This document shows, in pieces, positions 46,501 through 58,409 of a stretch of DNA of 64,000 nt (its first letter is position 1; each line of letters starts with the position of its first letter). Made by a program: the position numbers and the translations under genes. Origin of the DNA: Salinivirgaceae bacterium (GTDB lineage Bacteria > Bacteroidota > Bacteroidia > Bacteroidales > SZUA-534); the NCBI GenBank assembly GCA_041664345.1, contig JBAYKX010000001.1, positions 138,628-202,627 on the forward strand. The letters run 5' to 3'. The notes beneath the pieces are model-generated. The model searched no databases. It had not been told where the DNA came from and saw only the letters and a list, made by a program, of their open reading frames with translations.

Positions 46501-49500
46501 AATAATGTTGTTCCTGATGTTAGGTGTTCCGGTGCCATCCCAAATATCGAGACCATAATAGCAATTATTCAGTGAATTATTTATTACAGAAGACCCACCA
46601 TACGTCTTAATACCGGTTGAGTATGCACTAAAATAGCCTATCACTATATTGTGTGTGAAAATGGATCCATTGTAAAGAGATACCTGTTCGTCGGTAACAC
46701 TACTGGTTCCATGGAAAATAAATCCATCAATGGTTGAGGCGTATTGATCGGTAAGTTGCTTGGTACTGATGCCCTCAACGATAGTTTTGTTATTGAAGAA
46801 ATCCCGCTCAGCCATTAAAAATGAGGCGCTAAACCCTCCCAAAAGCCGCACACTAACTCCAGTTGTAAGAACTTGACTGTATGTTCCTGCCGCAACTTTA
46901 ATGGTATCGCCGCTAACAGCTCTGTTAAGAGCTGTCTGGATATTTCTGAGAGGAGAGGATGTACTTCCGTCGTTGGCATCATTCCCTGATGTTGTTACAT
47001 GCAAATTTCCTGTGGTTGTGGTAAAGTAATTTGATGTCGAATAAGGGCTATCACCCAGAGTAACTGATCCAAGGACTCTCCAGTAATAAGTTGTATTTAT
47101 ATTCAGGCTAGAAATTGATACGAATGTGTCAGCAAGATACGCATCTTCATAAATGATACCTGTTAAAAACATAGGATCGGTGCTCACCTGTAGATAGTAC
47201 ATATCAGTTTCTGATAAAGAATACCATTGTAGGGTAATAGTTTGAGGTTGGTGAGTTGCTCCATTGACCGGAAGTGCCAGAGTTGGTGCATCCGGAACGG
47301 GTGGTAAGTATGGCGAATGGATAGTTCCACCATAAGCTCCCATATCGATTCGGGTGTTGTAGTAACTTGGCTCATCCAATACATTATCAGCAGGATCGCC
47401 GGCATCAACGCATGGAGAACTTTCGAGTAACCGGAAATCATTATTTGCAGGATCCCTGAATTTAGGAATCTGGGTAATATCACCAGTGCCCGGATTCTGA
47501 TCGGTGCCGCTATACACTTGATTCAATGGATGAACGTTATTGTAAGTGCGAACCGCGGACGAGAATGCGTACGTGTTCATTCCATATGAACCGTTCTCAA
47601 TAATATTATTCCTAATGTTGGGGGTTCCTGTTCCCGATTGAATATCGATACCCCAATAGCAAATATAAAGGGTGTTGTTGATTACAGTAGCTCCGCCATT
47701 TACTCTAATTCCTATTGGATATGCGTTGTACAAGCCTATAACAATATTATGTGAGAAAATGGATCCATTGTTAAGGGTAATTTGCTCATCGGTTACACTG
47801 CTGTTGCCATGGAAAATAAATCCATCAATGGTTGAAGCGTATTGATCGGTAAGCATTTTGGTGCTAACCCCCTCAACGATAGTTTTGTTATTGAAGATAT
47901 CCCTTTCCACCTCGGAAAAGGTCTCATTATAACCCCCAAATAATTTAACACCCGTTTGAGTAGTGAGTACTTCATTATACGCGCCTGAGGCAACCTTAAT
48001 GGTATCACCGGCTACTGCATTATTTAATGCCGTTTGAATGTTTCTAAGGGGCGATGCAGCTGTTCCCGTATTGGCATTGTTGCCGGAGGTTGAAACACAA
48101 TAGCTGGTTGCAGCTCTATCTTTTATGCAGCGGACTGACATTCCAAAACTTTTATGATTGTAATACCTATACAGAATAGGACTAAGGTTATTCATTTCCC
48201 TGAATCTTGCGTTGGATGCATCATATTGTGTTGAGGACCATATAGCACAGAAAGTCCCTTGGTCGCCGAAATGCCCATCGAAGTAGTTTCGTGAACCACC
48301 TGGCAGTGCAGTAAAACCACTTTCGTTCGAAGCACCAGTATTTGGATCAACCCAATGTATAACCCCAACTTCTTTCATTTTTCCACCAGCAGAGTCTATA
48401 CCATTTAGGTAATTGGATAATATAGTCCATTCTGTATCATTAGGTACATGCCAACCAACCGGGCAAAGGAATCGGCTATCAGTTACCGAATAATAATTGT
48501 ATAAAGCCCCATAGGTAGGAGCATACGTAGTGAAATCATTACTATAATAGCAATAGGCTCCATTAGTTAAACCCGCCCAAGTAGCATCCACGGTAACATT
48601 GGGTATTTCCTCCCCATTCTGGTAATGGGTAACCGCCAGATTTTGCTGTGCCCAAATTTGGGTACCAATTTTTACCGTGGTGTAGGTATTGCCGTCTATG
48701 TCGGTAATCAGTTCACAAGGTTGAACCATAACCGTATCCGAAGGCTGACTAACATTGCCCGCCGTATCTACCGAGGTAATGTAAAACTGGTAGTTCTGGT
48801 AATTGATTAGTCCTGTAATGGTTTTAACGGTATCGTTGGCGGTTGCCACGGTTACAATGTCAACCTTTACTCCATCTAGGTAAATTCGGTACTTGGCAAT
48901 TTCAGCAATCCGTTCGGAACTCCATTTTAAGGTAATTTCGCCGTTTCCCTTTTCGGCTATTAGGGTATCTGGTGCATGATAGTTGGCATAAAGCTGCGAA
49001 ATTTCAGTAGCAGAAATAGCGCGGTTGTAAATGCGGATGTCATCGAGAGAGCCGTTGAAAAAGCCACGATTGATTTCGATGTTATCAGGCAATTTTCCAA
49101 TTAATAAATTTCCTGTTCCTGATAGTAACCAAGTGCCGAGCAGACTTGCATCAGTGCCACTTAATATACCATCAAGGCAAATTTCAGCTTTATCATTATT
49201 ATTAATTACCCCTACAACCTGATGCCAATTGTTATCAACAACTTTTTTGTTTGTTGAAGGAACTAAATATCCTGCACCAGAAGATTGCCAAGCTGTAACA
49301 TGAGCAAAACTATCCGTGAACACGCACAAATTATATTGATAATTATCGTTAATTCCTTTTGAAATAATATAGGAAGCATCAGGTAATGAGGTAATACTAT
49401 TAATTTTGAACCACGCTACTAATGTTATGTTTGAATTATTGTTTAAATAGCTTGCATTGTTCATTTCAATATAATTAGAGGTTCCATCAAAACTAAAGGC

Positions 49501-49950: not shown

Positions 49951-50772
49951 TCAATAAATCTCAATAATGCCATCTCTAAACGTAATAACCTCAATCGGTT
50001 GGTTGGTTACATCCCGAATTTGTGTGGAATCGGAAATATATTTCAATTCGCCGTCTCCAATTGCTTTAAAATAAATGCGGCAAATGGGGGCACTCCCGGT
50101 AAAGCCATTGGTGCTGCCCAATAAAATTCCATCGAGCATTAAAACATGATTATGATTTATTTCATATAAAGAATTGGTAATCTGCAACAAAAGAACTCCT
50201 TCTCCTTCCATCTGGCCACTGTTTTTTTCAATTTGGGTAACGGTTATATTTTCATCGGTTTGTATCTGGGTGGTAATTCCTTTAAAAAGGGAAACTTCTT
50301 CAATCCAAACATCAACAAAGCTTTCGGTATTAGCTGGTGCCCGGTTGTACCAATGGGTAAGCAGTAAAGAGGTTTGCTGCAAGGCATTGACAGTAAACGT
50401 AAGGGAAGTGGGTTCTGTTTGTTCGAAGTTTCCTGCTTTTTCCCTCACATAAAAAGTATAACTCCCTTCATCCAGGTAAGAGTAGGTAATGCTAGTTCCC
50501 GCTTTCCAAGCACTGTATTCATCATCCCTTCCTCCTAATTTAAAGGAAAAGGATGATTTACTAAAGATTCCCACCCAACTTAAGGTAACACTAGTTTCGT
50601 CAAGAATTTGTCCATTAGCAGGATTGGTAATGGTTGCTTTTGGGTATTGGAAATTTGGATTTTCAGGATCATACGGATTATCAAATACCGGAGGATCCAC
50701 CTGCTGGCAGGTTGCAAATGAGAAGAGGAACCATCCCACAAATACCCATTTAAAAAATCTAAACGGATTCAT
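49951..50772 (-). CDS. Lipoprotein with an Ig-like (Y_Y_Y-type) module and a cohesin-like C-terminal module
   Basis: Lipobox WFLFSFATC, and YSYLDEGSYTFYVREKAGN. The C-terminal beta-rich part resembles the module just before the CTD of the giant protein. The domain calls are tentative. Confidence 0.55.
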   Translation of the reverse strand: MNPFRFFKWVFVGWFLFSFATCQQVDPPVFDNPYDPENPNFQYPKATITNPANGQILDETSVTLSWVGIFSKSSFSFKLGGRDDEYSAWKAGTSITYSYLDEGSYTFYVREKAGNFEQTEPTSLTFTVNALQQTSLLLTHWYNRAPANTESFVDVWIEEVSLFKGITTQIQTDENITVTQIEKNSGQMEGEGVLLLQITNSLYEINHNHVLMLDGILLGSTNGFTGSAPICRIYFKAIGDGELKYISDSTQIRDVTNQPIEVITFRDGIIEIY

Positions 50773-51074
50773 AAGTAGATGAGTTGCTTGGCTGAAGTAA
50801 AATTAACAAACTAATTATCAGTATCCAAATATATTACACCAATATGCAAGTTAGTTTTATGATAAATACTCCCTCCAGAAGTATCATCGCTCATATTGAA
50901 TCCTTTTGGGATTTTTCTGATTGACCAGATGGCACCGAAACCTAAAATTTTCTCGAATTATTTCAGCGGCAAGCATGGATCACCGGGCTTTTTCCTACTG
51001 AATGAAAGTTGGTAAGCCAGCCCGGCATTTTTCAATTGCTGTAACAAGGTGTCCTATCATTCATTCTACCTATT

Positions 51075-51125
51075 TGAAAATTAACGATTGAAGATTAACG
51101 ATCTATGATTTTAGATTTAAATTTC
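51075..51125. repeat. Degenerate heptamer array (NNNGATT)n
   Basis: Reads gaaaatt/aacgatt/gaagatt/aacgatc/tatgatt/ttagatt/taaattt. Confidence 0.75.
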
Positions 51126-51370
51126 CCTCCAACTCCGAGTACTCAGGGCTAGTCCGTACCATTTGCACTATAACCAGCAGGGGAAAGCGAAGCGCCAGCT
51201 TCGCTATTGTTTTCCTCGCAGCAGCCTGTCTCGCAGCGGGCGCTGCAAGTTCCCAAAAGTCCGGCTTGCAGAGGGGTACAAACAAAATCATCTCCCAATA
51301 CCAACAGCCTAACCGGCATGTCGGCGATCCAAATCTTTCGCTTTAGCGGATCGCTGCGAGTTCCTACCAT
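51126..51370. repeat. Composite GC-rich palindrome patch
   Basis: Contains agcgaagc-gcca-gcttcgct and gcgatcc..ggatcgc. It also contains ctcgcagcgggcgctgcaagt (51230-51250), the exact reverse complement of 6502-6522. The ORFs predicted here look spurious. Confidence 0.7.
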
Positions 51371-51404
51371 AAAAAAAGCTCCACACCGCTAACGATATGG
51401 AGCC
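51371..51404 (-). terminator. Probable terminator of kbl
   Basis: The minus strand reads gctcca-(14 nt)-tggagc followed by TTTTTTT, about 20 nt after the kbl stop. Confidence 0.5.
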
Positions 51405-51425
51405 CCACTTAAATATCCTTACTTG

Positions 51426-52616
51426 TTATTTCAGTACCTTCAATTCTTTTCCAACTTTGGTAAAAGCAGCAATGGCTTTGTCCAAATGCTCTTTTTGGTG
51501 AGCCGCAGATAGCTGAACCCGAATGCGGGCTTGCCCTTTTGGTACCACCGGAAAATAGAACCCAATCACATAGATTCCTTCTTTCAACAATCGGGAGGCA
51601 AAATCCTGAGCCAGCTTGGCATCATAAAGCATTACGGCACAAATAGCCGATTGGGTTGGTTTTATATCAAAGCCGGCTTTAAGCATGTGCTTCATGAAAT
51701 ATTCGGTGTTGGAGTGCAATTTATCCTGTAAAACATTGGTTTCATTCATCATATCCACCATTTTCACTCCAGCTGCAGCTACCAATGGCGGTATGGAATT
51801 CGAAAACAAATAGGGACGCGACCGTTGGCGGAGCAAGTCAATAATCTCCCGTTTGCCGGTGGTAAAGCCGCCAATGGCTCCACCAAAAGCCTTGCCCAAG
51901 GTTCCGGTAATAATTTCCGCTTTTCCGCGCACATTGAATAACTCGGTCACTCCGCGGCCGGTTTTTCCCACCACCCCGGCTGAGTGCGATTCATCAATCA
52001 TTACCATGGCGTTGTATTTTTCGGCCAGTTTAATTATCTCATCCAATGGGGGAACATTTCCATCCATGCTGAAAACCCCATCGGTAACAATGATGCGGAA
52101 CCGTTGAGCCTGCGACAGTTTCAGTTGCTCTTCCAAATCGTCCATGTCGGCATTTTGGTAACGATAACGAACCGCTTTGCACAAACGTACTCCATCAATA
52201 ATTGAAGCATGATTCAAAGCATCGGATATAATGGCATCGTCCTGACCAAACAACGGTTCAAACACGCCTCCATTGGCATCAAAGGCTGCGGCGTATAAAA
52301 TGGTATCTTCGGTTCCGAAAAACTCGGCAATTTTTTTCTCCAGCAATTTATGGATATCGGTGGTTCCACAAATAAACCGTACCGATGACATTCCATATCC
52401 ATGAGTGTCGAGGGCTTTTTTTGCAGCTTCCACCAGTTCTGGGTTGTTTGATAACCCCAGGTAATTGTTGGCACAAAAGTTCAATACTTTTTGTCCGGTA
52501 CTGATTTCAATTTCTGCTCCTTGAGGTGAAACCAGAATGCGCTCGTTTTTATATAATCCTGCATCGGCAATATCAGCCAGCTCTTTGCGTAAATATTCTT
52601 GGAAGTTTTGATACAT
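51426..52616 (-). CDS. kbl: Glycine C-acetyltransferase (2-amino-3-ketobutyrate CoA ligase)
   Basis: 396 aa with NFCANNYLGL, GMSSVRFICGT, DALNHASIIDG, DGVFSMDG, DESHSAG and TGTLGKAFGG (PLP Lys). Confidence 0.92.
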   Translation of the reverse strand: MYQNFQEYLRKELADIADAGLYKNERILVSPQGAEIEISTGQKVLNFCANNYLGLSNNPELVEAAKKALDTHGYGMSSVRFICGTTDIHKLLEKKIAEFFGTEDTILYAAAFDANGGVFEPLFGQDDAIISDALNHASIIDGVRLCKAVRYRYQNADMDDLEEQLKLSQAQRFRIIVTDGVFSMDGNVPPLDEIIKLAEKYNAMVMIDESHSAGVVGKTGRGVTELFNVRGKAEIITGTLGKAFGGAIGGFTTGKREIIDLLRQRSRPYLFSNSIPPLVAAAGVKMVDMMNETNVLQDKLHSNTEYFMKHMLKAGFDIKPTQSAICAVMLYDAKLAQDFASRLLKEGIYVIGFYFPVVPKGQARIRVQLSAAHQKEHLDKAIAAFTKVGKELKVLK

Positions 52617-52784
52617 AATGGCGTTTTTGAGTGATTAGAATGACAGCAAAATTAAGCTATTCAAAAGAATTGTTCATCACGAAAGGTATGATTTGAAGCA
52701 TAAATTATAATGTATTATTGTCATACCTAGTTGCTGGGTTTACCCTATTTTTGTAAGTGATTTTGATTAATAATTAAATACACC

Positions 52785-52802
52785 GCCACAGATTCACTGA
52801 TT
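52785..52802. repeat. Left arm of an 18-bp inverted repeat bracketing the GxxExxY gene
   Basis: gccacagattcactgatt. The reverse complement of 53203-53220 is gccacagattcacagatt, matching at 17 of 18 positions. Confidence 0.85.
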
Positions 52803-52870
52803 TATTTATGAAATATCCAGAAGACGAATATCCATTGCAAAAATAAAGCTATCAGGTAATTGGGATATGT

Positions 52871-53194
52871 ATGGAGGTTCATCGGATTTTGGGAAAAGGC
52901 TTATTGGAAATAGTTTATAAAGATGCGATAGAATATGAATTTAAAAAGAGAGAAATACCTTATCACCGGGAAAAGAAATATGAAGTAAAATACAAAGACA
53001 TAATTCTACCTCATTATTTTTTTGCTGATTTTGTGGTTTATGATAAAATTATCCTCGAAATAAAGGCACAAAGTGGAATTGTGGATGAGCAAATTAGTTG
53101 GGTAATTAATTACTTAGCTATATCAAAATGTCCACTGGGATTAATAATCAACTTTGGAGAATCATCATTAGTTACAAGACTTCTTATTTTATAA
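52871..53194 (+). CDS. GxxExxY-family protein (PD-(D/E)XK-like); the N-terminal 21 codons are cut off by an in-frame TAA
   Basis: EVHRILGKGLLEIVYKDAIEYEFKKREIPYHRE..ADFVVYDKIILEIKA. The in-frame upstream reading from ATG 52808 gives MKYPEDEYPLQK*SYQVIGICM.., with the TAA at 52844-52846. Confidence 0.8.
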   Translation: MEVHRILGKGLLEIVYKDAIEYEFKKREIPYHREKKYEVKYKDIILPHYFFADFVVYDKIILEIKAQSGIVDEQISWVINYLAISKCPLGLIINFGESSLVTRLLIL

Positions 53195-53202
53195 TCTGTG
53201 AA

Positions 53203-53220
53203 TCTGTGGCCATTTTTTAG
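53203..53220. repeat. Right arm of the inverted repeat bracketing the GxxExxY gene
   Basis: aatctgtgaatctgtggc, beginning 9 nt after the stop codon. Confidence 0.85.
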
Positions 53221-53250
53221 TTTTAATTTAAATCTTAAAAAACTTGATAT

Positions 53251-54279
53251 ATGAATACAATGAAAGCCCTTGTTAAGGCTAAAGCTGAAAAAGGAATATG
53301 GATGCAGGAAGTACCCATTCCGGTAGTTGGACCCAACGATGTACTTATAAAAGTTTCCAAATCGGCTATCTGTGGCACCGATTTGCACATTTACAAATGG
53401 GACGAATGGTCACAAAAAACCATTCCGGTTGGTTTGACTATTGGTCACGAATATGTGGGACATGTAGCCAAAGTAGGAAGCGAAGTCAGTGAATTCAAAG
53501 AAGGGGATCGGGTTACGGGTGAGGGTCATATTTCCTGCGGACATTGCCGGAACTGCCGCCGCGGCCGTCAACACATCTGCGAAACCACCATTGGCATTGG
53601 TGTAAACCTCAACGGTTCATTTGCCGAGTACGTGAAAGTACCTTCGAGCAATGTGATGCGGATAAACGCCAAAATCCCTGATGAAATCCTAGCTATTATG
53701 GATCCATTTGGAAATGCAACCCATACGGCTCTTTCGTTCCCCATGATTGGCGAAGATGTGCTGGTAACGGGAGCCGGACTAATTGGAAGCATGGCTGTTG
53801 CCGTGGCACATTTTGCAGGAGCCCGTTATGTGGTGGCCACCGAAACCAGTCCTTACCGGGCCGAACTGGCAAAAAAAATGGGAGCTACCCGCGTTGTGAA
53901 TCCCTTAAAAGAAAATTTGCGCGATGCCATGAATGATATCGGTATCATCGGATTTGATATCGGTTTGGAGTGTTCGGGTTCGCCGGTTGCTTTCAATCAA
54001 TTAGTAGAACACATGTACAATTCCGGGAAAATTTCACTATTGGGAATACTCCCATCTTCAACTCAGGTTGATTGGAACCGAATTATTTTTAAAGGGCTTA
54101 CCCTGAAAGGGATTTATGGACGCGAAATGTACGAAACCTGGTACCAGATGGAGCAAATGCTCATGTCGGGACTCGATATTTCAGCCATCATTACGCACCG
54201 TTTCCCCATTGACGATTTCCAAAAAGGGTTTGATGTAATGGAACAGGGGAATTGTGGGAAGGTGATTTTGAATTGGTAA
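53251..54279 (+). CDS. tdh: L-threonine 3-dehydrogenase (Zn-dependent MDR family)
   Basis: [38 protein letters not shown] and GAGLIGSMA. It is divergent from kbl, its pathway partner. Confidence 0.92.
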
Positions 54280-54304
54280 ACTGAGTAATAACAAAATATC
54301 CGCA

Positions 54305-54384
54305 AGTCACGGTGTGACTCTTTAATTAAAATTACCTAGTCAGCTTTATTAAGCGACTTTTAATTAGTAAGTCACGCCGTGACT
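54305..54384. repeat. Two copies of a 15-nt palindrome, AGTCAC-N3-GTGACT, 65 bp apart
   Basis: agtcacggtgtgact (54305-54319) and agtcacgccgtgact (54370-54384), with AT-rich ttaattaaaa / ttttaattag between them. Confidence 0.8.
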
Positions 54385-54423
54385 ATCAGTAGGTTAACTT
54401 TTTACTTGCTGATTTAAGGAAAC

Positions 54424-54463
54424 AAAAAAAGCCCGTTTAAATGGTTTTAAACGGGCTTTTTTC
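54424..54463. terminator. Bidirectional rho-independent terminator shared by tdh (+) and sdhB (-)
   Basis: aaaaaaa-agcccgtttaaa-tggt-tttaaacgggct-tttttt: a perfect 12-bp stem flanked by an A-run and a T-run. Confidence 0.85.
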
Positions 54464-54481
54464 TATATTAATACAATTCTC

Positions 54482-55243
54482 TTATTCCACCACTTTAGCC
54501 ATTAAATATTCCCTGTTAAGGGTAGCAATGTTGGCAATGGAAATTCCTTTTGGGCATTCCACTTCGCAAGCCCCGGTATTGGAGCAGTTGCCAAAACCCA
54601 GTTCGTCCATTTTCGATACCATGGCACGAGCCCTACGGGCAGCTTCCACTTTACCTTGCGGCAAGCGGGCCAGATGCGAAACCTTGGCCGATACAAAAAG
54701 CATGGCCGATGAATTTTTACAGGTTGCCACACAAGCACCACATCCAATGCATGAGGCTGCGTCCATAGCCGCTTCAGCATCGTCGTAACCAATAGGAATG
54801 GCATTACCATCAGGCACTCCACCAGTATTTACTGAAACAAACCCTCCGGCATGCAATATTTTCTCAAATGCCGACCGATCTACCATTAAATCCTTAACCA
54901 CCGGAAAGGTACCGGCACGGAATGGTTCCACCACAATGGTTTCGCCGTCTTTAAACTTCCGCATGTGCAACTGACAGGTTGTAATAGCATCATCGGGGCC
55001 ATGGGCACGGCCGTTTATAAACAAACTGCACGTACCACAAATACCTTCGCGGCAGTCGTGATCAAAAACAATTGGTTCTTTTCCGCTTTCAATCAGTTGG
55101 AAATTTAAAATATCCATCATTTCCAAAAAAGAGGTGTCGGTAGATATATTGGTAACAGGATAGGTTTCAAACTGACCCTTGGAGGTGCTGTTTTTTTGCC
55201 TCCATACCTTAACTTTTATTTCTTTTAGAATTTTTTCAGACAT
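54482..55243 (-). CDS. sdhB: Succinate dehydrogenase / fumarate reductase iron-sulfur subunit
   Basis: 253 aa with [15 protein letters not shown] (2Fe-2S), [13 protein letters not shown] and [15 protein letters not shown] (4Fe-4S/3Fe-4S). Confidence 0.92.
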
Positions 55244-55261
55244 TGTTGTAAGTTTTTATGG

Positions 55262-55294
55262 TTTTAAGTATCAAGTATAGAGTATCAAGTATTA
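55262..55294. repeat. Heptamer array (TATNNAG/AAGTATN)n downstream of the four-helix-bundle gene
   Basis: Reads aagtatc/aagtata/gagtatc/aagtatt/aag. The stop codon of the gene lies inside it. Confidence 0.75.
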
Positions 55295-55645
55295 AGATTG
55301 TTTTGAACTGCGGAAACTAAAAAGCATTTTCTGTATCTCTTTCACTCTTTCTTCATACAGAGTTAATTCAATTTCAGTAATTAAATCCACATCAAAGGAG
55401 AGTATAAGCTGAGTCTCTAATTCAAACGCACTTCCATTTGCCATATCCAGAAACCGGCACAGATCTTTATCCGAATTGCGGCCACAGCCTTCTGCAATAT
55501 TCGAAGGTATTGATTGGGAGCTTCTCCTTAGCTGGGAGGTTAAACCAAATAATTCTTCCTTTGGAAATCTCCTGGTTAAGTTATAAATATCTTTATGAAG
55601 GCTTCTGGCTTTTTGCCAAACTATCAATTCTCTAAAATTATGCAT
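55292..55645 (-). CDS. Four-helix-bundle protein (family formerly called 23S rRNA intervening-sequence protein)
   Basis: FRELIVWQKARSLHKDIYNLTRRFPKEELFGLTSQLRRSSQSIPSNIAEGCGR..FLDMANGSAFELETQL. Confidence 0.88.
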   Translation of the reverse strand: MHNFRELIVWQKARSLHKDIYNLTRRFPKEELFGLTSQLRRSSQSIPSNIAEGCGRNSDKDLCRFLDMANGSAFELETQLILSFDVDLITEIELTLYEERVKEIQKMLFSFRSSKQS

Positions 55646-55660
55646 CTTACTTTCTATAAT

Positions 55661-55712
55661 CTGATTCTTGCTACTTGTATCTTGCGTCTTGATTCTTGTG
55701 TCTTGTGTCTCA
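55661..55712. repeat. Heptamer array (NNTCTTG)n upstream of the four-helix-bundle gene
   Basis: Reads gattcttg/ctacttg/tatcttg/cgtcttg/attcttg/tgtcttg/tgtctca. Its reverse complement, (NNNCAAG)n, mirrors the array at 55262-55294. Confidence 0.75.
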
Positions 55713-55719
55713 ATCCTCT

Positions 55720-57660
55720 CTATTTATAACTCCGCTGGGCCAACTCAATCGCCTCAAATTTAAGATCCTCTTTATGCATCACTGGTTCTTGGTTTTCTCC
55801 TTTATATTCCCAAGCAGAAACATAAGCCCCAATTTCATCATTCCGTTTGGCTTCGCCATCCTCAGTAACACTTTCCTCACGGAAGTGCCCACCACACGAT
55901 TCGTTTCGAGCCAAGGCATCGCGGGCCATTAAATCGGCCAGTTCAATAAAATCGGCAACCCGTCCGGCTTTCTCCAATTCTTGGTTTACCTCACCTTGAA
56001 CTCCGGGAACCCTTACATCTTTCCAGAATTCAGCTTTTATTTCAGCAATTTCCTGAATGGCTTGTTTCAATCCGGCTTCATTGCGGCTCATCCCAACCTT
56101 ATCCCACATCACTTTTCCCAATTTTTTATGGAAATAGTCAACAGGTTTGGTTCCTTTAACCGCCATCAAGCGGTCCAACCGTGCCTGAACTTCTTTTAAT
56201 GTTTGTTCAAATTCGGGTGCGTTGGTATTAATTTTTGGAACCTGAATTTCGTTGGCCAGATAATCGCCAATGGTATAAGGCAACACAAAATATCCGTCGG
56301 CCAATCCCTGCATCAATGCCGAAGCTCCTAAACGGTTAGCCCCGTGATCGCTGAAGTTGGCTTCACCAATGGCATACAATCCGGGAACGGAAGTCATCAG
56401 GTTGTAATCAACCCAGGTTCCGCCCATGGTATAGTGGATGGCGGGATAAATCTGCATGGGTTCTTTATAGGGATCTGTATCGGTAATTTTTTCATACATC
56501 TGAAACAAATTCCCATAACGGGCTTCAATAACAGGTCGTCCTAATCTGGCTATTGAATATTTAAAATCGAGATAAACAGCCAACCCTGTATTGTTAACCC
56601 CAAACCCGGCATCGCATCGCTCCTTACCCGCTCTTGAAGCCACATCACGTGGAACAAGGTTTCCATAAGCCGGATACCGGCGCTCCAAGTAAAAGTCACG
56701 ATCCTCTTCGGCAATATCATTGGGCCCAATCAATCCTTTTTGCAATTTTTCCGCATCTTCTTTCTTTTTGGGAACCCAAATCCTACCGTCGTTGCGCAAC
56801 GATTCCGACATTAACGTCAGTTTCGATTGTTGATCGCCATGAACCGGGATACAGGTAGGGTGAATTTGCACAAAACAAGGATTACTCATGTAAGCACCGC
56901 GTTTGTAAGCTTGCCACGATGCACCGCCATTACATCCCATGGCATTGGTGGATAGGAAAAATACGTTTCCGTATCCGCCACTGGCAATAACAACAGCATG
57001 GGCACCAAATTTTTTAATTTCGCCCGAAACCATGTCGCGGGCAATAATTCCACGGGCTTTACCATCAATTTTAACAATATCCAACATTTCGTGGCGAGGA
57101 AACATTTTAACAGTTCCTGCTCCAATTTGACGGTTCAAGGCACTGTATGCGCCTATCAACAGCTGCTGTCCGGTTTGTCCGCGGGCATAAAACGTACGTG
57201 AAACCAACACACCACCAAATGAACGGTTCGATAATAGGCCTCCATATTCGCGTCCAAAAGGTACTCCTTGTGCCACACACTGATCAATGATGCTTCCCGA
57301 AACTTCAGAGAGTCGGTGAACATTCGCTTCACGTGAGCGGTAGTCGCCCCCTTTAATGGTATCGTAAAACAAGCGGTAAACACTGTCGTTATCGTTCTGA
57401 TAATTTTTTGCTGCATTTATTCCACCTTGCGCAGCAATGGAGTGGGCTCGGCGTGGACTATCCTGATAACAGAATGCTTGCACATTATAGCCCAGTTCGG
57501 CCAAACTGGCAGCCGCTGAGGCTCCTGCTAATCCGGTACCAATAACAATAACATCCAATTTCATTTTATTGGCCGGACTTACCACTTTAATTTTAGCCTT
57601 ATGTTTCGACCATTTTTCAGCCAATGGTCCTTCGGGTATTTTTGAGTTTAATAGTGTCAT
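55720..57660 (-). CDS. sdhA: Succinate dehydrogenase / fumarate reductase flavoprotein subunit
   Basis: 646 aa with [12 protein letters not shown] (FAD), [23 protein letters not shown] and [10 protein letters not shown]. Confidence 0.93.
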
Positions 57661-57728
57661 TTCCTTGTCGATTTTTGTAAATACGCAATTTTATAACTTC
57701 AATTTAATTTGTCTTTACAGAGGCTTCT

Positions 57729-58409
57729 TTAAAACCTAATAATAAAGTACAATGGGATGATAGAAAAACCTACGGCAATTAGTACAGCAAATATTTTTCC
57801 AACCAGTTCAATCCGCTTACGCCAGATATTTCCGCTCCATCCCATAGTCTGAAAAGCACTCCAAAAACCATGTGTTAAATGAATGCCTAAAAAAACAGCT
57901 CCCGCAATATATACCAAGTTATAAAACAAACTATTCTTAAACAAACCACCAACCAAACTATACGTATCTTCCATCTCAATGCCGCCAATTAAAACAGCAG
58001 GATGTGGATTTTCGGTCACCTTGAGCTTCCAATAGAAATTCATGATGTGCAGAACCAAGAAAATGGTAATTAAGGTTCCCAACACAAACATATTCCTTGA
58101 TGGCCATGTGCTGGCTTCACTTTGATCCACTTTATTGTAACCTACCGGACGGGCTTTCTGGTTCATGAGGGTAAGGTAACCCGCATAAATCATGTGCATT
58201 AGGAAACCAATTGCCAAAAGAGGCTCCACTATCTTAATAATGGGATTGGTAGCCATAAAATGAGCCCCTTGATTAAACAATACGCCGGTATCATCAAATA
58301 TAAGCAGTAAGTTTACTGTTAAGTGTACCGATAAAAACATCATCAGAAAAAATCCTGTTATACTCATAAAGAATTTTTTTCCGATGGAAGAACTAACAAA
58401 ATTGCTCAT
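57729..58409 (-). CDS. sdhC: Succinate dehydrogenase / fumarate reductase cytochrome b subunit (b558-type, single membrane subunit)
   Basis: 226 aa, five TM helices with conserved His, first gene of the sdhCAB order typical of Bacteroidota. Confidence 0.85.
   Translation of the reverse strand: MSNFVSSSIGKKFFMSITGFFLMMFLSVHLTVNLLLIFDDTGVLFNQGAHFMATNPIIKIVEPLLAIGFLMHMIYAGYLTLMNQKARPVGYNKVDQSEASTWPSRNMFVLGTLITIFLVLHIMNFYWKLKVTENPHPAVLIGGIEMEDTYSLVGGLFKNSLFYNLVYIAGAVFLGIHLTHGFWSAFQTMGWSGNIWRKRIELVGKIFAVLIAVGFSIIPLYFIIRF

Follow-up and report, generated by a model that had tools for sequence, protein, structure and literature searches.

A 426-bp cassette with an interrupted GxxExxY gene inside an 18-bp inverted repeat and its likeness to nuclease-plus-hairpin elements

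We analysed a 64,000-nt stretch of the genome of a Salinivirgaceae bacterium (contig JBAYKX010000001.1, positions 138,628 to 202,627), hereafter called the window, in which the 634-nt spacer between two divergent genes, kbl (51426-52616, minus strand) and tdh (53251-54279, plus strand), harbors a cassette of 426 bp. The cassette is a compact, promoter-less unit: a 128-codon gene of the GxxExxY family occupies the loop between the arms of an 18-bp inverted repeat composed of two CACAGATT units capped by GC, and this copy of the gene is broken by an in-frame stop codon. On balance, the region probably represents a decayed copy of an element that combines a nuclease with its cognate hairpins, by analogy with the Ssn/NTS and RAYT/REP systems. 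The divergent arrangement of kbl and tdh around a GxxExxY gene, already recognised in the initial annotation of the window, is borne out by the gene coordinates and by matches to the TIGR04256 and PF13366 profiles. The features of the cassette and its surroundings are the following (window coordinates).

52785-53210, plus strand: whole cassette, 426 bp, consisting of left arm, 5-nt linker, GxxExxY frame and right arm overlapping the stop codon; delimited by its absence from the spacers of relatives, the edges of conservation and the G+C content
52785-52802, strand unspecified: left arm, GCCACAGATTCACTGATT, made of GC and two 8-nt units, CACAGATT and CACTGATT; from sequence
53193-53210, strand unspecified: right arm, AATCTGTGAATCTGTGGC, complementary to the left arm at 17 of 18 positions; from sequence
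52808-53194, plus strand: full GxxExxY frame (PD-(D/E)XK, PF13366/TIGR04256), 128 codons, broken at codon 13
52844-52846, plus strand: in-frame TAA at codon 13, where homologs have glutamate (consensus GAA)
52871-53194, plus strand: residual 107-aa open reading frame (ORF) from the first in-frame ATG past the stop
52746-52753, plus strand: TATTTTTG, a match to the Bacteroidota -7 box and candidate tdh promoter upstream of the insertion point, kept in the nearest relative (G002)

The ATG at 52808 stands 5 nt past the end of the left arm, and 390 nt separate the two arms. The right arm begins within the stop codon (TAA, 53192-53194), its first two bases being the last two of the stop, and is followed by a T-run, GTGGCCATTTTTT. 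The initial annotation had the left arm at its correct coordinates, and the 17/18 inverted match described there holds; the right arm, which had been put at 53203-53220, lies 10 nt to the left of that position.

Comparison with related genomes (handles beginning with G, C and L denote genomes, contigs and loci; G000 is the present genome) shows the unit to be variable. The same divergent arrangement of kbl and tdh is found in G002, G003, G018 and G001, where the spacer measures about 200 nt and contains neither the gene nor the arms; together with the multi-copy occurrence of the 18-mer in the genome, this bears out the first description of gene and repeat as a unit. When the 426 bp are removed, the G000 spacer aligns across the junction with that of G002, the nearest relative (tdh 97% identical), and the comparison of this empty site with the cassette site reveals no arm remnant and no target-site duplication. 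These alignments are explained most economically by one gain in the G000 lineage. The G+C content of the cassette is 31%, as compared with 43% in its flanks. A recent intragenomic duplication was considered and rejected, the closest paralog (on contig C36) being 74% identical and the closest homolog elsewhere standing at a synonymous divergence (dS) of about 1.3. By its position, the cassette probably sits in the tdh leader, in the same sense as tdh, and TATTTTTG, which is conserved in the empty site of G002 upstream of the insertion point, is the candidate tdh promoter that would transcribe it. This octamer matches TAnnTTTG, the -7 box of Bacteroidota promoters.

The gene and the arms are found together well beyond this species. 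A homolog scan with one genome per species yielded 506 relatives, of which the best 80 were kept; these come from Bacteroidales, Ignavibacteria, Chitinophagales, several Methylococcales metagenome-assembled genomes (MAGs) and a few oddly labelled bins. At 44 of the 80 loci, distributed among Bacteroidia, Ignavibacteria and Methylococcales, each of the two arms departs from the core by no more than two mismatches. In the canonical geometry, the left arm begins 24 nt ahead of the ATG and the right arm extends to 19 nt past the last sense codon, the latter distance being shared by the present cassette and most close homolog loci. Among 23 canonical copies, the conserved stretch is bounded precisely by GCCAC on one side and GTGGC on the other, the flanks being unrelated and AT-rich. 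Identity statistics were calculated on the 30 copies with a full ORF and both arms (435 pairs): the ORF is 77.6% identical overall and 55.5% identical at third codon positions, with a dS of about 1.4 and a dN/dS of 0.08, and the arms are 94.4% identical, being more conserved than the ORF in 99.8% of the pairs. Judged from these values, the protein is under strong purifying selection, and the arm sequence itself has stayed constant over a time in which silent sites became saturated.

Flanking inverted repeats with a score of at least 14 were detected at 56 of 79 loci, as compared with none of 400 long control ORFs of G000. The more distant paralogs carry different arms of the same design, with a GCCAC cap and CAC-N4-6 units every 8-10 nt, and this rule is seen in G000, in its relatives and in all twelve GxxExxY genes of G274 and G032. 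Each GxxExxY paralog lineage has its own arms of a common design, and throughout Bacteroidia, Ignavibacteria and Methylococcales the gene is inherited jointly with its arms, as one unit. The ORF has a mean G+C content of 30% versus 39% for the flanks (46-53% for those of Methylococcales), and the cassette is therefore compositionally foreign in most hosts. At L051, L071, L074 and L083, the cassette is preceded or followed by a tandem series of 3-8 arm copies spaced by about 32-48 nt, forming hairpin arrays. Two close homologs with canonical arms, L048 and L100, come from contigs that binning had assigned to a Thermoplasmata archaeon and to a Synechococcus MAG, respectively; this placement may reflect mis-binning rather than cross-domain transfer, and four Methylococcales contigs look genuine.

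The arms also form a dispersed repeat family in the present genome. Their 13-mer core, GCCACAGATTCAC, occurs in 34 copies in 5.57 Mb, mostly as inverted pairs, while a reversed control pattern gives 0. The copies make up about 17 inverted pairs, all intergenic and usually less than 50 nt from gene ends, which are of three kinds: some are simple hairpins measuring 29-60 nt, others belong to a family of about 133 nt in which a second inverted repeat is nested, and a few have other interiors. The spacers of this genome contain, in other words, some 17 gene-less hairpins, similar to miniature inverted-repeat transposable elements (MITEs), that are copies of the arms. Twelve of 19 elements lie between co-directional genes, and some gene-less hairpins are found between convergent ones. 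The paralog on C36, at 46889-47272, is an intact GxxExxY gene and is located among such arms. For two gene-less elements, the orthologous spacer of G003 is shorter and has no arms, and hairpin elements are present or absent among congeners; in the case of the solo hairpins of C8, C37 and C67, the flanks were not found joined in relatives. One orthologous site (G000:C34:46757-46889, L145 from G002:C341 and L143 from G003:C40) is empty in G003 and occupied in both G000 and G002 by elements that share their ends and junctions and have unrelated interiors, that of G002 being homologous to the G000:C56 element. Such an arrangement suggests either that interiors are exchanged between arms or that elements have inserted more than once at this spot, which would then be a strong hot spot.

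Some of the G000 hairpins abut a second palindromic motif, TTAATTGGGGTGAATAGTCACCCCAATT, or its variants (C3:33793-33822, C33:51259-51288, C34:46890-46919, C56:19795-19824 and C66:7071-7100), and these composites are mosaics reminiscent of bacterial interspersed mosaic elements (BIMEs). Integron attC sites, whose core consensus is RYYYAAC / GTTRRRY, were rejected by sequence, as the arms are without these cores.

It is hardly credible that the inverted repeat is a chance or terminator palindrome around an ordinary decaying gene, or that the stop is a sequencing artefact. The T-run behind the right arm would suit a terminator, but neither the excess of the core over its control nor the total lack of high-scoring repeats around control ORFs is expected by chance; dozens of genomes have homologs framed by the same arms, relatives do not have the cassette, and the TAA is identical in three independent assemblies, as described below.

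The relation between hairpins and gene was evaluated in 301 genomes of the class, 19 of which have at least 4 copies of the core, with the highest counts in G274 (226), G032 (49), G155 (38), G000 (34) and G212 (26). A homolog of at least 70% identity is present in 8 of the 301 genomes; all 8 carry the core, 7 of them in at least 4 copies. The hairpin-gene association is strong, not obligatory. Indeed, G274, G032, G165 and G048 possess many hairpins and no homolog at E <=1e-40, and none of their GxxExxY genes has these arms; a strict dependence of the hairpins on a cognate gene was ruled out by G274 and G032. The core copies of G274 are mostly paired at a distance of about 100-120 nt (G274/G032 loci L126-L142).

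These hairpin-rich genomes without a cognate-armed gene fit an explanation in which the hairpins form a REP/BIME-like or MITE family of their own, dispersed by another enzyme such as a host Y1/RAYT protein or an unseen transposase, and the GxxExxY genes are passengers captured in, or preferentially landing in, their loops. The variable interiors, the mosaics with a second palindromic motif and the G000/G002 site, with its identical ends and unrelated interiors, can be read in the same way, and G000 encodes four Y1_Tnp genes. We nevertheless find this explanation unlikely. The gene-arm geometry is fixed to the nucleotide across a dS of about 1.4, which repeated independent capture would not give, and every paralog lineage has arms of its own. 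Moreover, 12 Y1_Tnp loci fetched from G000 (two of its four), G274, G032, G155, G212 and G300 are all without arms, G274 has only weak Y1 matches, and no long element with these arm ends plus a transposase was found in G000. A RAYT protein was accordingly rejected as the mobiliser, on the grounds of the fetched Y1_Tnp loci and the weak matches in G274.

The protein encoded by the read-through frame matches PF13366 with 110.1 bits (cut-off 22) and TIGR04256 well above its cut-off of 35. The residues G31-L-L-E34-I-V-Y37, D74 and E84-I-K86 are present and occupy columns that are invariant or at least 90% conserved among 51 sequences; G29, also one of the invariant residues, is kept as well. An AlphaFold2 model of the read-through sequence, calculated with 51 homologs (pLDDT 95, pTM 0.87), has the topology helix-helix-three strands-helix-two strands. 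When this model was compared with the PDB by Foldseek, the best match was Cas4 SSO0001 (PDB 4IC1, probability 1.0, TMq 0.54-0.58), followed by the nuclease domains of AddAB, RecE and AdnAB and then by MGME1 and a Cas4-family protein, all with E values above 0.001; the PDB searched by sequence gave no match. According to the model, the protein is a minimal RecB/Cas4-like PD-(D/E)XK domain devoid of iron-sulfur (Fe-S) cysteines, with its catalytic residues intact. Cas4 proteins are composed of about 200 aa, carry a four-cysteine Fe-S module and have cas or helicase partners. The present protein has two cysteines in 128 aa and is encoded next to kbl and tdh, with no cas or helicase neighbour: its predicted fold resembles Cas4, but it is not a Cas4 member. 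No match to the PADLOC defence models was found for the GxxExxY protein or for the four-helix-bundle protein described below. In the literature searched, the only comment on PF13366 is "unknown, multiple transfers" (PMC3424549). Queries for GxxExxY, PF13366, PDDEXK_3 and REPIN/RAYT with nuclease returned nothing describing such cassettes, and no published description of the gene-plus-arms unit was found.

In the present copy, the frame starting at ATG 52808 reads MKYPEDEYPLQK, then the stop, then SYQVIGICMEVH (the continuation is also given as SYQVIGICMEVHRILGKGLLEIVY). Against TIGR04256, the read-through frame scores 119.7 bits from profile position 2 and the form beginning at ATG 52871 scores 109.2 bits from position 11; because only the former reaches position 2, the segment before the stop is the true N-terminus. 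The frame translation and this alignment agree with the earlier proposal of ATG 52808 as the natural N-terminus, followed by TAA 52844-52846 and the internal ATG 52871. By exact look-up of the 107-aa product, the same locus was identified in three other assemblies (Logan SRR6484324, JGI 3300037810 and Logan SRR18595301), where it sits between an aminotransferase gene and an alcohol-dehydrogenase-type gene and where the 107-aa ORF is the product recorded by the gene callers. Over the 140 nt compared, the window and the three assemblies are all identical, TAA included, and the entire cassette is the same in all of them. In an alignment of 1446 nt, one of the assemblies departs from the window at a single position and another at two, all in the flanks. 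The assemblies thus represent independent samples of one species, in which the TAA is real and fixed.

At the stop position the 80 homolog loci have glutamate (consensus GAA), and about 6 of the 80 are themselves broken by stops or frameshifts elsewhere in the frame (L080, L087, L095, L098, L122), as is one GxxExxY copy each in G300 and G004. A programmed stop or an alternative genetic code was rejected, given the glutamate of the homologs at this codon and the different break points of the other damaged copies; the stop is ordinary decay. The 107 codons past it keep every invariant or near-invariant residue of the 51-sequence alignment, so that either the stop is young or the product from ATG 52871 is still selected. 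This product would be without residues 1-21, which represent more than half of helix 1 (residues 11-28 in the model). With its frame interrupted at codon 13, this copy counts as a pseudogene, or else as a truncated member, of the GxxExxY family, most likely inactive or at best yielding an N-terminally truncated protein from ATG 52871. The initial annotation had offered decay and expression from the internal ATG as the two options, a fair statement in view of the fixed stop, the glutamate of the homologs and the intact residues that follow.

How the cassettes are expressed is indicated by their surroundings. The upstream neighbour is co-directional at 51 of 57 callable loci and the downstream one at 55 of 62 (about 89%); both neighbours are co-directional at 39 loci and both opposed at 1. 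The 5 nt between arm and ATG leave no room for a promoter, and the cassettes would therefore ride on host transcription. In the predicted RNA of the present copy, the arms pair in both the minimum free energy and the centroid fold, and the stem extends over the AUG at 52808. These properties would suit a function of the arms mainly in RNA, like that of the stem of 23S rRNA intervening sequences: RNase III would cut the stem, or the stem would mask the start codon, so that the small gene is released or silenced and the host cistrons are insulated, and spread at the DNA level would be due to general recombination and not to the encoded protein. The PF05635 gene in the neighbourhood belongs to the classical ORF type of intervening sequences, for which Coxiella offers a parallel (PMC4990558). 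We regard this explanation as possible, if doubtful. The arm sequence is conserved at 94%, beyond what pairing alone demands, with the silent sites of the gene saturated; gene-less hairpins occur between convergent genes too; the whole RNA folds only marginally better than shuffled sequences (z = -1.6), which is not significant; and it would leave unexplained why each paralog lineage keeps its own arms. Among 34 distinct arm pairs, compensated double changes are seen at 11 of 18 positions, and G.T wobble accounts for 3 cells versus 51 mismatches, a proportion unlike that of selected RNA helices. This pattern, in which either pairing or common recognition would be selected, looks more like DNA or protein recognition than like an RNA helix. 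Of the mobilisation or RNA-structure logic evoked in the initial annotation, the former part is upheld insofar as the repeat-gene-repeat unit is a discrete gain relative to four relatives and is kept as a unit across phyla; as to DNA versus RNA, the near-absence of G.T wobble leans to DNA or protein recognition. At a permissive threshold, Rfam searches of positions 50000-58000 gave no rRNA or other match on the cassette.

The cassette is nearest to three known systems, namely Ssn/NTS, REP/RAYT and the ORF-bearing 23S intervening sequences, and is a member of none. In Ssn/NTS, a small GIY-YIG nuclease gene is flanked by its own hairpin repeats of 20-50 nt, which are also dispersed without the gene; the repeat sequence co-varies with the protein lineage, the distribution across phyla is patchy, and the authors noted the insertion-sequence-like layout (PMC11893778). 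In the present family, too, cognate hairpin repeats stand on either side of the gene and recur at dispersed sites of the genome. It differs by its PD-(D/E)XK instead of GIY-YIG fold, by arms made of phased CAC-N5 units, by the usual location of the gene inside a single hairpin loop with fixed spacing, and by the fact that no biochemical activity is known for the GxxExxY family.

REP/REPIN-RAYT systems consist of intergenic palindromes, arranged as hairpins or doublets and as palindrome mosaics, and of one cognate Y1 HUH gene (PF01797) flanked by them in inverted orientation, the repeats being lineage-specific. Intergenic hairpins, a cognate gene in inverted repeats, lineage specificity and mosaics are all shared by the cassette family, whereas its gene is not a Y1 transposase and the most hairpin-rich genomes can be without the cognate gene. 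The third system is exemplified by the Coxiella 23S rRNA intervening sequence, which is 428 nt long, of low G+C content, with a 28-bp terminal stem cut by RNase III and a decaying ORF (PMC4990558). Intervening sequences with an S23p/PF05635 ORF resemble the cassette in their size of about 430 nt, in the terminal inverted repeats around one small ORF, in their sense insertion into a transcribed region, in a G+C content lower than that of the host, in their sporadic and horizontally acquired occurrence and in the frequent decay of the ORF; a PF05635 gene of similar layout lies 2 kb from the cassette, in the sdh operon. The cassette differs from them in that it lies in a probable mRNA leader and not in rRNA, its ORF has a nuclease fold, and its arm sequence is conserved beyond the needs of pairing. 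Insertion sequences and MITEs share with it discrete ends, presence in some relatives and absence from others, and short derivatives that keep these ends without the gene; unlike them, the cassette has no transposase domain and no target-site duplication, and contains only a 128-codon nuclease-fold gene. To our knowledge, 426 bp is far below the size of any autonomous insertion sequence.

If the region is a relic of a nuclease-plus-cognate-hairpin element, an intact protein would recognise the CAC-phased arms of its own cassette when the DNA is folded or single-stranded, and probably nick or cut them, by analogy with RAYT on REP and Ssn on NTS. Cassettes and hairpins would be copied in this way, or interiors exchanged between arms. 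The cassette would be expressed by read-through from host promoters, and paired arms in the RNA might mask the start codon. Several observations weigh against this scheme. In the literature searched, no activity is known for any PF13366 protein, so that cutting or binding of the arms is purely our inference. The hairpins are numerous without a cognate-armed gene in G274 (226 cores) and G032 (49). At about 10 of the 80 loci (L086, L088-L091, L093, L097, L114, L116, L122) the arms point inward (GTGGC-gene-GCCAC), placing the gene between two hairpins, and the location in a loop is consequently not universal. The sense bias may be partly survivorship, the loci having been chosen by protein similarity. 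Neither a target-site duplication nor a scar or excision product was seen, and the cassette is carried by all three other samples of this species. Its presence or absence is observed between species and not between near-identical strains.

A stronger proposal, which we put forward only tentatively, is that GxxExxY proteins and CAC-phased arms constitute a third class of nuclease-repeat partnership, based on a PD-(D/E)XK enzyme and self-mobilising, beside RAYT/REP and Ssn/NTS. A 15-kDa Cas4-like enzyme would then, by recognising and cutting its arms in folded or single-stranded DNA, copy a 426-bp cassette, seed gene-less hairpins, or swap the DNA between two arms. No smaller self-mobilising gene cassette would be known, and the family would offer new sequence-specific nucleases that act on single-stranded or hairpin DNA.

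The PF13366 family is large and represented in many phyla, its function being unknown, and the present locus offers an unusually clean case, with a dated gain opposite an empty site in congeners, conserved arms and gene-less derivatives. If the protein acts on the arms, a type of intergenic palindrome that is common in Bacteroidota and other phyla would find its explanation and be linked to the long-puzzling ORF-bearing 23S rRNA intervening sequences, and compact sequence-specific nucleases could be obtained, as they were from Ssn. In annotation, the small gene should not be separated from its arms, the whole being a single insertion. Operons and leaders, here probably that of tdh, harbor such insertions, which may affect their expression.

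A second small gene of the window had been compared with the cassette in the initial annotation:

55292-55645, minus strand: four-helix-bundle (4HB) gene (PF05635 / TIGR02436), located between sdhA and sdhB in sense orientation; from profile matches

In the window, CAAGA-type repeats precede the gene (about 55662-55711) and complementary CTTGATA repeats follow it (about 55266-55291). The stem that these could form is weak, and the fold is no better than that of shuffled sequence (z = +0.64). The 4HB gene is a variable insert: the G002 ortholog occupies the same place between different flanking arrays, GAGAC / GTCTC (L002 1-560), and G003 has only a relic of the 5' end of the gene, corresponding to its first ~19 codons (L003 3350-3600). 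The parallel holds to the extent that both genes are variable inserts with flanking inverted repeats, which around the 4HB gene are arrays of short units; it fails in that no comparable 18-bp repeat or stable fold accompanies the latter. As a common design principle, it is loosely supported.

Between the convergent genes tdh and sdhB, at 54380-54549, sub-threshold Rfam matches to Thr_leader and Trp_leader were obtained on both strands (35 bits versus a gathering threshold of 55); they most likely correspond to a shared terminator hairpin, not to a leader.

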